Shown here piece by piece: positions 33,872 through 37,919 of a stretch of DNA of 37,919 bases. Positions within the stretch are counted from its first letter, which is position 1; every line of letters starts with the position of its first letter. A program made the translations under genes and the position numbers. The notes below the pieces were generated by a model. The model saw only the letters and a list, made by a program, of their open reading frames with translations, did no database searches and had not been told where the DNA came from. The stretch lies in sequence record DRR723986_8468; one strand, 5' to 3'.

Positions 33872-33929
33872 CCCAGATGTAGCCCAGATGTAGCCCAGAA
33901 GTTAGCGCAGATATTACCCCAGATCTTAC
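33872..33929. repeat. Degenerate 11-12 bp tandem repeat, five copies
   Basis: CCCAGATGTAG CCCAGATGTAG CCCAGAAGTTAG CGCAGATATTAC CCCAGATCTTAC. Confidence 0.85.
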
Positions 33930-35950
33930 CCGAGGGTTTCCCCTGCAATATCAAGAGAATCAGTAGTCCGGCCATTCAGTGGTAGTTTAATAATGAATAA
34001 CGCTCCGCCTTCAGCAGCATCGCGATATTCTATCTGGCCATCCATTCCGTTAAGCAATTTTTTTACGATCCATAAACCCACTCCGGTCGAACTCTCACCG
34101 CCTGTAGGTTTGTTGCTCAAACGACCAAACTTGCGGAAAAGCTGTCCGCGCTCCACCACCGGGACGCCTGGTCCTTCATCTGCGACGTGCAATTCAACAC
34201 CGTCATTGGTCTGCTCAAGAATCACCCGCACGGTACTCTCCGGCGGCGAAAACTTCACTGCATTCGACAACAAGTTGTCAACAACTTGAATCAGAGCGCG
34301 GCGGTCTGCAATCAGCCTGCATTCGTGCTCGGGCATGTTAAGGTTTAGCCGCATTCGTTTATTCTCAAGCTTGCTGCTGAAACCCGTGACAAGCTGCCGC
34401 AGCAGCATCGTAATATCAAATTCTTCCTGATTGATCAGCACTCCATCCGACTCCATTCGGCTGGCGGTTAACAAATCATCCACAAAGTCCAGCATCTGCC
34501 GAACTGTAAATTCAACGTCTTTGGTGAACTCAACTACTTCGCTGCCCACATCGGCAACATTTAACATTTGGCGAACTTGCAGCAGAATATTGGACAGTGG
34601 GTTTTTGATGTCATGCGCCACAATGTCGATCAAATTTCCGCGTTCGCGATCGACTCTTTGAAGTCTCTCGTTAGAATAATTTAACTCGTGCAGGGCGCGG
34701 TTGAGTTCAACGTTGCGCAAACGGTAAATCTCTTTTTCCTTGCGTTCATGCTCCAGGTCATAGCGCGATTGCATCCGCTGGGTCGATTCGCGCACCGAAA
34801 GTTCACGCACGGCTTCGCGCAGCGTGGCATACTGTTTGTGATGATCCAGTGCCAGCTCAATCTTCTTGCTCTGCTCGTAGTATTCTGAGAGGCTTAGGTG
34901 CACTTGACTGCGCAGATCAGCACTCTCCAGCTTGTCTGCAATTTTCAAAGCTGTTTGCAGATGCGGGTAAGCGTCTACAAGTCGATTTTCCAACAAGGCT
35001 ATCGCGCCGAGCATCTGTTCCAGTTGGCACACGGCCGCATCATCGGCATAATAGCTGGCCAATTTAAGTGATTCTTGAGCCGCCGCGCGCGCGGCTTTGG
35101 TCCGGCCGCGCTTGGTGTCTATCTCAGCGCGGATCGAGAGGATACTCAACAGGCACTGTTTGTCATCAAGGATGCGCGCCAAATCGTGGCCGCGTTCCAG
35201 ATAGTGCAGAGCTGAATCGCCGTCACCAAGTGCATGATAGGCATAACCAATGTTACAGAGCGTTGTGGCTTCCGACTGACGGTCCGGCTGGTCTCTGCTC
35301 AACTCCAGGCTGCGCTCATAGTATTCGAGGGCGGGCTGATATTCTTCGAGCGTGAAGTACACATTCCCAATGTTATGCAGCGCCAGCATCTGGCCATAGA
35401 CATCATCCAGATCTTCGCTGATTTGCAGGCTGGCCAGAAATCGCTCTAACGCTTCGTCCAGTCGGCCGGTCTTGCGGAGCAGGTTGCCTATGGATACATC
35501 CAGCTTGCCAATGCCGCGCTTATCGCCAATCGCCTGGCGCAAGTCCAGGCTGCGAACGTACCACTCCAGGGCCGCATCAAAACTTCCGCGGCGTTTATGT
35601 ACGATGCCAATTAACTGTGCGGCTCCCGCCTGGTCACGCTGCGCGCCACAGGCGCGAAACAAACTTTCGGCTTCACTGAAGTTGCGCAGAGCCGCATCAT
35701 AACTTCCCATGATTTCAAAACAATGGCCAATCTGGACCATGCTGCGCGCCATCCAAAATCTGTCGCAGATCCTGGTTGCAATATCGAGTGACTTACGCGC
35801 AAGTTCAAGAGCTCGGTGGGGATTGTTACGCCGGATTGATTCATTCAATTCGTGGTACAGTACTAGATTACGTGCAGACTCAGAGTCTTGCTCCGTTCCC
35901 TCACTGTACTTTTGCAGATCCGCGCGTATGTTTTCGTGCCTTGTACTCAA
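33926..35950 (-). CDS. Cytoplasmic TPR-repeat sensor histidine kinase (orphan)
   Basis: Multiple TPRs (e.g. LHNIGNVY...ALEYYERSL), coiled coil, H-box AHDIKNPL, N-box NLLSNAVKF, G1 DEGPG, G2 TGVGL; no signal peptide or TM; TTG start. Confidence 0.92.
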   Translation of the reverse strand: MSTRHENIRADLQKYSEGTEQDSESARNLVLYHELNESIRRNNPHRALELARKSLDIATRICDRFWMARSMVQIGHCFEIMGSYDAALRNFSEAESLFRACGAQRDQAGAAQLIGIVHKRRGSFDAALEWYVRSLDLRQAIGDKRGIGKLDVSIGNLLRKTGRLDEALERFLASLQISEDLDDVYGQMLALHNIGNVYFTLEEYQPALEYYERSLELSRDQPDRQSEATTLCNIGYAYHALGDGDSALHYLERGHDLARILDDKQCLLSILSIRAEIDTKRGRTKAARAAAQESLKLASYYADDAAVCQLEQMLGAIALLENRLVDAYPHLQTALKIADKLESADLRSQVHLSLSEYYEQSKKIELALDHHKQYATLREAVRELSVRESTQRMQSRYDLEHERKEKEIYRLRNVELNRALHELNYSNERLQRVDRERGNLIDIVAHDIKNPLSNILLQVRQMLNVADVGSEVVEFTKDVEFTVRQMLDFVDDLLTASRMESDGVLINQEEFDITMLLRQLVTGFSSKLENKRMRLNLNMPEHECRLIADRRALIQVVDNLLSNAVKFSPPESTVRVILEQTNDGVELHVADEGPGVPVVERGQLFRKFGRLSNKPTGGESSTGVGLWIVKKLLNGMDGQIEYRDAAEGGALFIIKLPLNGRTTDSLDIAGETLG

Positions 35951-36021: not shown

Positions 36022-37047
36022 ATGCAGGTTATCACATTCCAAGCTAGGAAAATTGTGCCAGACATCAAATATCAATTCCGAGATTCACTCACAGAGTTCA
36101 GTACTTGCTTACGAAGAGCGCATTTCCTCGGATTAATTCTGCTGGCGTTATGCATTCTGCGGCCTGACATTCTTAAGGCGCAGGATACAAATAGTACAAC
36201 AACTTTTGAAGGTAGTACAACAGCCTCTGAAGCTGACAAAACAGCCTCTCAAAGTGATACAACAGCCTCCCGGGGTCCAAACCCTGATCCACTGCGCCTG
36301 GGTTTGGTTGGTGGCGTCACCGCCGCCGGGTTTGTTTACGGCCACGTTTTGCAGAACGACATTTGGTGGAAAGGCGAACGCAGCGATTTTCACTTCAACT
36401 GGCAAGCCGACTGGGAATACTCACTTGGTGCCGACAAGCTCGGGCACATGTATTTCCCCTACGTCATTACCAATGTCTACGGCGACCTGTTCACCTGGAG
36501 TGGGCTGGACACAAGCACAGCCATCTATCTGGCCGGCGGTCTGGCACTGAGTTATCAAACCTACATTGAAATTCGCGATGGCTTTTCGGCGGAATGGGGC
36601 TTTTCCTGGGGAGACATGGCCGCCAACACGCTGGGAGCGGTATATCCAATAGCAGTCCATCATTGGCCACAACTCGATTTTGTCAGGCTTAAGATCAGTT
36701 TTAACCCGACTCAGGAATTTCGCGATGGATCACATGCTGCCATTATCGACGACTACGAAAGCACCACACACTGGCTAAGTTTTGGCGTGCACGACGCATT
36801 GCCACAAAGTCTGCAAACTTATTGGCCGGAATGGCTGCGAATTGCCGTGGGGCATAGCGTGCAGGCACTCGACGGACGTGGCGGCGGCGACCATCGCATT
36901 TTCCTGACGCTGGATTATGGCATTTCCGATTTAGGAGGAGATTGGCAACCCTGGCGTGCAATCAAAAATTTGCTGGAGTTTTATCACTTGCCCGCGCCTG
37001 CGGTGCAGCTACATCCAGATGTCGTTTGGTACGGCTTGCGTTTGTAG
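36022..37047 (+). CDS. DUF2279/YfiM-family protein
   Basis: Signal-like segment, WW.G.RS.FHF, ADKLGH, IEIRDGFS..WGFSWGDMAANTLG, LKISF, DDYE..T.WLS. Confidence 0.85.
   Translation: MQVITFQARKIVPDIKYQFRDSLTEFSTCLRRAHFLGLILLALCILRPDILKAQDTNSTTTFEGSTTASEADKTASQSDTTASRGPNPDPLRLGLVGGVTAAGFVYGHVLQNDIWWKGERSDFHFNWQADWEYSLGADKLGHMYFPYVITNVYGDLFTWSGLDTSTAIYLAGGLALSYQTYIEIRDGFSAEWGFSWGDMAANTLGAVYPIAVHHWPQLDFVRLKISFNPTQEFRDGSHAAIIDDYESTTHWLSFGVHDALPQSLQTYWPEWLRIAVGHSVQALDGRGGGDHRIFLTLDYGISDLGGDWQPWRAIKNLLEFYHLPAPAVQLHPDVVWYGLRL
36193..36276 (+). repeat. Intragenic 21-bp tandem repeat, four copies (7-aa Ser/Thr-rich linker)
   Basis: AGTACAACAACTTTTGAAGGT / AGTACAACAGCCTCTGAAGCT / GACAAAACAGCCTCTCAAAGT / GATACAACAGCCTCCCGGGGT = STTTFEG STTASEA DKTASQS DTTASRG. 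Confidence 0.85.
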
Positions 37048-37055
37048 TTTTGGCC

Positions 37056-37103
37056 AAAAACAAACAAACCTCGGCAACACATTTGTGGTACCAAGGTTTG
37101 TTT
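37056..37103 (-). terminator. Intrinsic terminator, better formed on the minus strand (may be bidirectional)
   Basis: Minus strand AAACAAACCTTGG-tac-CAC-aaat-GTG-ttg-CCGAGGTTTGTTT-GTTTTT; the G-U pairs and U-tract favour the minus strand. Confidence 0.7.
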
Positions 37104-37244
37104 AATCTGCGCCGGCCTGATCACGGGGTCTTATTCCCGCCTATCCTACATGCCTCATGTCTTACTCACTGGTCCGGCGCTGTTAACGCCGGTCTTCCCT
37201 TCCTATCGATAGTTCTCTTCCGCCAGGCCCTACACACAGATTTT
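37056..37244 (-). ncRNA. Candidate structured small RNA (~190 nt), family not recognised
   Basis: Extended -10 immediately upstream; closing stems AATCTGTG/CGCAGATT and GGCCTG/CAGGCC; internal hairpins; duplicated GATAGG.GGGAA..GACC motif; terminator; no credible ORF. Confidence 0.5.
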
Positions 37245-37249
37245 CGCGA

Positions 37250-37258
37250 ATTTTAGCA
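37250..37258 (-). promoter_or_regulatory. Extended -10 promoter TGcTAAAAT
   Basis: Minus strand TGC-TAAAAT (37258-37250); the predicted TSS at ~37244-37243 coincides with the start of the closing stem. Confidence 0.5.
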
Positions 37259-37919
37259 TCTGTCGCACTCACTTCTTGTAACAAGTCAACACGCCGTTCA
37301 GTTACAGCGCAGACATTTAGCAGCTCCACTTTGCAACTCTCATAGGATTGTTAACAATTTGCACAATCAAGCACTGTGCCCGCCGAGAAGTTTGCCCGAG
37401 CGCTCCAGAATTAAACCCCAAAGTTTCGATTTTTGCCGCCGTCCTGCCTGCCTCGCCGTTGCCGGAGAGTTGTTGTTGTTCTAACCGGTCTTTATCGGCG
37501 GCATTTCCTTTTCTGTAAGTGGTAGCTATGGTGCAATAATGTATCGACCTGTCCAAGTGTTACATGTATTCTGCGGCTGCCCAGTTTCTACGTCGGCATG
37601 CAATCCAGGTTGCGAATGTTTGCATTTTTTGTGCATTCTGCACGCTGCACACGCAACAATGTATAATAAGCCACCAAAGCATAATTAGTCACAACCAGGT
37701 CTGCCCTTTTTTGCACGATTATGAGCCGGCAGAATCCGAACTAGAATGCTCATTAAATGCAAGTCATTTTTAATTGCATCTGCAATTGTTTTTGCAATCG
37801 TGAAATTTTCGCACGGACCGTTGACACAGATGTTTCTTGCCGGGCAAATCTGTTTTGGTGGTGTTTACTGCCCCGTTCATGCCGACTTCACTGGACGTTC
37901 AGGTACAAAGTCGGGCCGT

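Follow-up and report, generated by a model that had tools for sequence, protein, structure and literature searches.

A candidate small RNA gene with its own terminator, convergent with a DUF2279 gene in a narrow clade of uncultivated bacteria

A structured minus-strand RNA facing a DUF2279 gene

The stretch of DNA analyzed here, sequence record DRR723986_8468 (37,919 nt, referred to as the window), holds near its end a locus at which two features converge. On the plus strand lies the gene for a predicted lipoprotein of the DUF2279 (YfiM-like) family (36022–37047, 341 aa; Pfam PF10043, E 8.3e-17), which served as our synteny anchor and is preceded by a divergently oriented TPR-histidine-kinase gene. 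On the minus strand, at positions 37244–37056, lies the candidate small RNA (sRNA) that is the subject of this study. The DUF2279 stop codon at 37047 is found 15 nt before the terminator hairpin of this RNA. A preliminary description, made from the sequence alone, had taken the segment for a candidate novel sRNA, with its own promoter, a closing stem, repeated GGA motifs and a terminator, which would titrate a protein in the way CsrB/RsmZ do and might be of a new class.

Folded as a minus-strand RNA, the 189 nt of 37244–37056 reach a minimum free energy (MFE) of -71.7 kcal/mol compared to -50.0 ± 4.0 kcal/mol for 200 dinucleotide-preserving shuffles (z -5.42), and none of the 200 shuffles folds as well. 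The plus strand of the same stretch reaches -55.6 kcal/mol (z -4.16), so that the minus strand is better by 16 kcal/mol. A sliding 150-nt scan of both strands of 36900–37919 gave the RNA as the sole strongly structured segment. Taken together, the shuffle z-score and the scan show that the fold is real and local. The core without the terminator also folds well, with z-scores of -3.3 in the window and -4.8 and -5.3 in the two homologs described below. The discrete structured RNA proposed earlier, with closing stem, purine-rich multiloop and terminator, is thus borne out both by this fold and by its conservation in two relatives.

Homologs were sought with the DUF2279 protein, which was used to collect 80 loci from species-representative genomes. 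The RNA was found in only the two best of these, L001 and L002 (nhmmer E 3.5e-18 and 1.6e-17, respectively; ≈70% nucleotide identity), whose DUF2279 proteins are 60–65% identical to that of the window. As in the window, it lies in both loci just past the DUF2279 gene, convergent with it and in the same orientation, and the genomes G001 and G002, which are assembled from metagenomes, each carry a single copy. Conservation starts sharply at GAAAA(A)UC and stops after the terminator. Within the RNA the identity to L001 is 70–75% in three out of four 40-column bins and drops to 47% in the one that spans the variable loop of P3 and junction, while in a forced alignment of the intergenic DNA upstream it is 25–45%. 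Over the ≈675 nt upstream, no local similarity (BLAST) and no common peptide could be found between the window and L001 or L002. In the loci L003 and L005 (DUF2279 proteins of 45–55% identity), the next gene follows ≈60–80 nt downstream and the RNA is not there.

The transcript would consist of a core of ≈145 nt (37100–37244, minus strand) followed by an intrinsic terminator of ≈45 nt. The core is conserved with L001 and L002 from GAAAA(A)UC through CGCAGAUUAAAC, and its 5' end is placed at the start of this conservation. Its predicted structure is a closing stem of 17–19 bp, made up of P1 and P2 and interrupted by a small internal loop or bulge, around a multi-way junction with the hairpins P3 and P4. 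In P1 the 5' strand AAUCUGUGU (37234–37242) pairs with the 3' strand GCGCAGAUU (37104–37112) in the MFE structure, and the latter is invariant in all three sequences. P2 is formed by GGCCUGGC (37222–37229) and AUCAGGCC (37114–37121), which pair in the MFE structure, the consensus fold and the alignment. The halves reported earlier for P1 (AATCTGTG, 37242–37235, and CGCAGATT, 37111–37104) and for P2 (GGCCTG, 37229–37224, and CAGGCC, 37119–37114) are found where they were placed and are paired. The 3' strand of P1/P2 together with the linker that follows, UCAGGCCGNCGCAGAUUAAACA, is conserved.

The P3 hairpin CCGGCG...CGCCGG (37174–37192, minus strand), also described before, belongs to the three-sequence consensus and is seen in two of the individual MFE structures, those of the window and L002; in the MFE structure of L001 this stretch is paired otherwise. 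P4 (GCGGG...CCCGU, 37123–37140, minus strand) is present in all three MFE structures. The consensus fold contains P1, P2, P3, P4 and the terminator, and most of these recur in the individual folds.

In the three-sequence alignment 50 pairs fall into four helices and 95.3% of the cells are paired, compared to 35–48% when the partners are slid by 1–3 columns. As the structure was derived from the same three sequences that were used to score the pairing, this is supportive rather than a statistical proof. Over the 50 pairs there are four compensatory changes on both sides and nine one-sided changes. Helix 1, which includes P1, has 14 pairs with one compensatory and three one-sided changes (95% of cells paired), helix 2 (P3) has 11 pairs with two compensatory changes, and the six pairs of helix 3 (P4) are all invariant and hence uninformative for covariation. 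Helix 4, the terminator, has 19 pairs with one compensatory and five one-sided changes (96.5% of cells paired). Many of the pairs are of the G-U type, or alternate between this and G-C or A-U, and the plus-strand equivalent of G-U would be A-C. Because the G-U pairs and the one-sided changes keep the pairing on the minus strand only, this is the strand of the RNA.

Three invariant blocks lie in the purine-rich strands of the junction. The block CGGAAGAGAAC (37212–37222, minus strand) starts the junction and holds the first conserved unpaired GGA, and GGAAGGG (37197–37203) holds the second, 18–19 nt further on. The third block, AGGCAUGUAGG (37145–37155), lies in the junction of the consensus fold and is in the window alone part of an ACAUG/CAUGU hairpin. 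Both this hairpin and the palindrome CTATCGATAG, which the preliminary description also listed, are present in the window but absent or degraded in the two homologs. The same goes for its "duplicated" GATAGG...AAGACC motif, and the meaning proposed for these three features is not confirmed.

The terminator (37056–37103, minus strand) is a hairpin of 15–20 bp with the arms 37062–37081 and 37084–37103, which form an inverted repeat, and a U-tract. Its energy is -24.2 kcal/mol in the window and -25.3 and -22.8 kcal/mol in the homologs. It thereby shows the stem-loop and U-tract of a Rho-independent terminator, conserved with covariation. A simple terminator scanner, whose loop and stem rules are narrow, gave no minus-strand listing for it. 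With an A-tract at one flank and a U-tract at the other, the hairpin can fold on either strand and is a bidirectional terminator, shared with the convergent DUF2279 gene. The earlier statement that the hairpin is there stands, whereas the remark that no minus-strand gene explains it gives an incomplete picture.

Distribution, upstream region and host clade

A covariance model of the core, R1, was built on these few sequences and is nearly a single-sequence model, so that more diverged homologs would escape it. It scores 138–176 bits on the three loci. Among 61 relatives of G001 it matched three genomes, one of which was judged false, leaving the RNA in 2 out of 61. The false match (20.8 bits over the full length, L091 1501–1642 in G007) is located inside the coding sequence of a TPR histidine kinase, in a coiled-coil, HisKA-proximal part, and its E-value of 0.025 per genome over 61 genomes is what chance would give. 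This kinase belongs to the same family as the one at 33926–35950 in the window. In the order of G001, R1 matched two of 151 genomes and none of the 149 others, and it found nothing in the three genomes G003–G005.

A class-wide pattern search allowing up to three mismatches matched 9 out of 401 genomes, with three matches for the reversed-pattern control. Eight of the nine gave at most 11 bits or nothing with R1, and only G001 is a true member. A metagenome scan with the pattern GGAAGAGAACN{50,75}GGCATGTAGG returned 18 stretches with no likeness beyond the two blocks of the pattern, two of them at a weak 12–14 bits with R1, and these were put down to chance as well. No Rfam family (Rfam 15) was matched by the window at the gathering score or by the homolog loci at E ≤ 1, and no relevant one by 36900–37919 at E ≤ 10, in line with the novelty proposed earlier for the RNA. 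Judging by titles and the beginnings of abstracts, the RNA is not described in the papers found on CsrA/FliW sRNA sponges, small RNAs of Ignavibacteria, DUF2279 or sRNAs of Bacteroidota.

Transcription would start from a promoter of the RNA's own. The candidate extended -10 box TGCTAAAAT named in the preliminary description is present (37250–37258, minus strand), although it was missed by a consensus promoter scan, which needs both hexamers. Neither its sequence nor its distance is conserved, however: the positions aligned to it read TGTTTTACA in L001 and TGTTGAATG in L002, and their distance to the core is greater by 11 nt. A sigma-28 promoter was considered and rejected, as ACCGATCC just upstream of the RNA in L001 has no matching -35 element and nothing alike is seen in the window. 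For comparison, the flagellin promoters of G001 are TAAAG-N15-CCGATCA-like.

The palindrome CTTGTAACAAG (37275–37285) covers the -35 position, and its TTGTWACAA form occurs once in the 37.9-kb window where 0.34 would be expected. A related perfect palindrome of 12 bp, ATTGTTAACAAT, is found ≈100–115 bp upstream of the core (37347–37358), and only GTTAACAA of it is common to L001 and L002. Both CTTGTAACAAG and ATTGTTAACAAT are unique in the 37.9 kb, and the two palindromes may be operator sites. The first palindrome and a TGTAAC-N18-GTTACA repeat had been reported before and are indeed present, but they are not conserved in the homologs. The GacA/UvrY box is TGTAAG-N6-CTTACA. The repeat was rejected as such a box, since both its spacing and its sixth base differ and it is not conserved in L001 or L002.

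The DNA upstream of the RNA up to the end of the window (37245–37919, ≈675 nt) has no open reading frame (ORF) longer than 79 aa, and neither a tRNA nor an Rfam match was found in it. It is apparently non-coding, with a lower GC content (39–46% in places) and many short repeats of the TGCA/GCAA type, and it contains a 20-nt inverted repeat (37620–37639 and 37743–37762). L001 and L002 likewise have a gene-free gap of 750 nt upstream of the RNA, with a sequence unrelated to that of the window. At 150–350 nt upstream of the RNA, a block (4390–4545 of L001, minus strand) is 95–100% identical between L001 and L002, and its flanks are 70–90% identical. This block is dissimilar to the window, shows no strong structure on either strand (z +1.1 and -0.4) and contains the hairpin CCGATGC-CGGGC-GCATCGG.

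By its gene content, the clade that carries the RNA would belong to the FCB group and probably stands near Ignavibacteria. The window itself encodes SprA-related and SusC-like receptor genes. In G001 fliW (170 aa, PF02623, E 8e-23) follows a MotB/OmpA-like gene and directly precedes csrA (102 aa, L092 1501–1809), the region being L092 985–1809, and the C-terminus of an ORF nearby resembles, by eye, what is presumably a sorting domain of the type IX secretion system (T9SS). The SprA-related and SusC-like genes together with this fliW-csrA region and the apparent T9SS domain point to a flagellated bacterium of the FCB group.

G001 also has two tandem flagellin genes (L115 1330–1475 and 2560–2670) with the sigma-28-like promoters TAAAG-N15-CCGATCAC and TCAAGA...TCCGATAC. 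Their leaders contain several GGA motifs, of which one overlaps the Shine-Dalgarno sequence and another is part of a GGCAGGAUGCC hairpin. These sites fit with a FliW-CsrA-flagellin partner switch in the clade.

The neighboring DUF2279 family has reportedly been placed in the 'Lipocone' superfamily by a 2025 eLife paper. A 2026 preprint, 'YfiM is a lipid-linked oligosaccharide pyrophosphatase', is also said to mention DUF2279.

Interpretation and rival explanations

Fold, strand, conservation boundaries, synteny and absence from Rfam are all matters of observation here. On balance we regard 37244–37056 on the minus strand as probably a real, independently terminated small RNA gene of a narrow clade of uncultivated bacteria. 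Such an RNA would probably act in trans through its invariant unpaired blocks, the helices being a scaffold and the blocks a contact surface. Protein binding through the purine-rich junction is a possible mode of action, though a tentative one, and mRNA base-pairing through AGGCAUGUAGG or other blocks can be put forward with the same reserve; the remaining share falls to something else. The block AGGCAUGUAGG could cover a start codon.

Hfq could not be found in G001 or G002, and it is usually missing in this part of the tree. In G001 the start codon of flagellin 1 (CAUGCCU) has a 7-nt match to AGGCAUG. Duplexes of the whole sRNA with 23 gene starts were long-loop artefacts, no better than background.

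Several points weigh against a small RNA gene of this kind. With 85% identity between L001 and L002, the three sequences amount to only two effective lineages, and the covariation is thin, with the structure drawn from the very sequences in which it is counted. The terminator alone is no proof of a minus-strand transcript because it is bidirectional. Since the -10 box is not conserved, the 5' end is set solely by the start of conservation and independent transcription is presumptive. As to targets, the reverse complements of two of the invariant blocks are no more frequent in the window than expected by chance. Seed duplexes with the leaders of the G001 flagellin, fliW and csrA genes are within background, for which reason the 7-nt match at the flagellin-1 start codon was given no weight.

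Alternatively, the island could be no independent RNA gene but a long 3' region of the DUF2279 gene with its bidirectional terminator, or an element acting at the DNA level, with an incidental fold. The terminator comes 15 nt after the stop codon and works on both strands, the plus strand also beats its shuffles (z -4.2), no conserved promoter was found and there are only two effective lineages. Yet conservation runs on for 145 nt past the terminator, in the direction leading away from the DUF2279 gene, and the G-U pairs and one-sided transitions keep the pairing on the minus strand only, where the fold is also 16 kcal/mol more stable. L003 and L005, with DUF2279 proteins of 45–55% identity, have short gaps to the next gene and no such region. 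We therefore hold this explanation to be unlikely.

A small RNA gene could also be of the kind named in the preliminary description, an sRNA titrating CsrA/RsmA, whose unpaired GGA motifs would sequester the CsrA dimer and relieve the repression of targets such as flagellin. The relatives G001 and G002 do encode csrA (78 bits, above the Pfam cut-off), and the RNA has two invariant, mostly unpaired GGAAG motifs 18–19 nt apart. A CsrA dimer can bridge two sites that are 10–63 nt apart, with an optimum near 18 nt (PMC7652899), and the GGAAG spacing falls in this range. The flagellin leaders of G001 offer several GGA sites, among them ACGGAAG-like ones and one in the GGCAGGAUGCC hairpin, and the purine-rich junction is poorly suited to pair with purine-rich ribosome-binding sites. 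All six GGA triplets counted earlier are there, but GGA is not over-represented: against 2000 dinucleotide shuffles each, the window has 6 vs. 5.27 ± 1.57, L001 5 vs. 4.81 and L002 4 vs. 4.25, and 43% of the window shuffles reach six. Only two GGAs are both conserved and unpaired, both in the junction strand and none in a short hairpin loop; the three bases of the first have unpaired probabilities of 0.61–1.00 across the three sequences, while a third GGA at a stem-loop boundary has its G residues paired. No match was found to the CsrA consensus RUACARGGAUGU from in vitro selection (SELEX; PMC7652899), and each sequence has at most one A(N)GGA.

The gene context speaks against titration too. 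In the relatives csrA adjoins fliW, which is the arrangement of a protein antagonist, and according to a review (PMC7652899) this arrangement is anti-correlated with the BarA-UvrY system, by which Csr sRNAs are driven. The gene, occurring with fliW, is found in 35 of 61 relatives compared to 2 of 61 for the RNA, and the window has no match to the CsrB/Rsm families of Rfam. A check for csrA, as the preliminary description called for, turned the gene up in the relatives G001 and G002, beside fliW. The proposal of a CsrB/RsmZ-like titrating sRNA is not supported, and titration of CsrA is distinctly unlikely. More doubtful still is a role as RNA antagonist or RNA partner of a FliW-type CsrA, which would be the first outside the Gammaproteobacteria, with the two invariant unpaired GGAAG motifs as one high-affinity bridging site for a CsrA dimer on a rigid helical scaffold. 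If true, the flagellin-FliW-CsrA partner switch of a small clade of the FCB group would gain an RNA layer, and a CsrA partner would break the current picture in which fliW-linked CsrA is under protein, not RNA, control.

Two further classes of structured RNA were weighed. In a ligand-sensing, riboswitch-like aptamer the terminator would gate antisense read-through into the DUF2279 gene. Features that agree with such an aptamer are the closing stem P1, the invariant nucleotides of a multi-way junction, a terminator 8 nt after P1 and the conserved linker AUUAAACA. The terminator (-23 to -25 kcal/mol) is nevertheless constitutive, as it forms with or without P1; none of the three sequences shows an alternative antiterminator, and downstream there is no gene in the sense orientation. 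The RNA is single-copy, is confined to a narrow clade and matches no Rfam riboswitch, which leaves this explanation very improbable.

A divergent 6S-like RNA that binds the RNA polymerase holoenzyme is barely credible. The size of ≈145–190 nt, the long closing stem and the large internal loop loosely recall 6S RNA, and the 6S and 6S-Flavo models of Rfam match nothing in G001–G005, a gap that is real but uninformative. The apical helix, however, is a hairpin of 7–11 bp and not a long terminal arm, and the closing stem encloses a multi-way junction, with a second hairpin of 5–6 bp, rather than a two-stranded bubble. 6S RNA is broadly conserved, whereas the present RNA was not detected in the 149 other genomes of the order, nor in the syntenic relatives, and it has no Rfam 6S match even at E ≤ 10.

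Regulatory RNAs are almost uncharted in uncultivated bacteria of the FCB group. As the evidence stands, the small RNA gene proposed here is one more lineage-specific sRNA candidate, known from three genomes among all those searched. Well-delimited and structured, with invariant unpaired blocks, it lends itself to experiments and could be the starting point of a new RNA family.

Relation to known systems

The RNA shares several features with RsmY, RsmZ and CsrB of the Gammaproteobacteria, which are also stand-alone sRNAs (110–350 nt) with a Rho-independent terminator and unpaired GGA stretches, and csrA is present in the relatives. It differs from them in that GGA is not enriched, lies outside the hairpin loops and is conserved at two sites, in that no Csr/Rsm model matches, and in that the csrA of the relatives is linked to fliW and far fewer relatives carry the RNA than carry csrA.

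GibS is a trans-acting, Hfq-independent sRNA of Bacteroidota. The present RNA resembles sRNAs of this type in being a structured sRNA of ≈145 nt with an intrinsic terminator and conserved single-stranded stretches as possible seeds, in genomes where Hfq was not found. It has no sequence or Rfam relation to them, and its seeds are purine-rich with target complementarity at chance level.

With 6S RNA (RF00013 and RF01685) the likeness is in size and in the 5' and 3' ends, which are paired into a long closing stem around an unpaired interior. The differences are the multi-way junction, the short apical hairpin, the narrow distribution and the lack of a model match.

Finally, the locus resembles the bidirectional terminators known between convergent genes, as the RNA core is separated from the stop codon of the DUF2279 gene by one hairpin with an A-tract and a U-tract, foldable on both strands. 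What sets it apart is that one of the two convergent "genes" is here a non-coding RNA.

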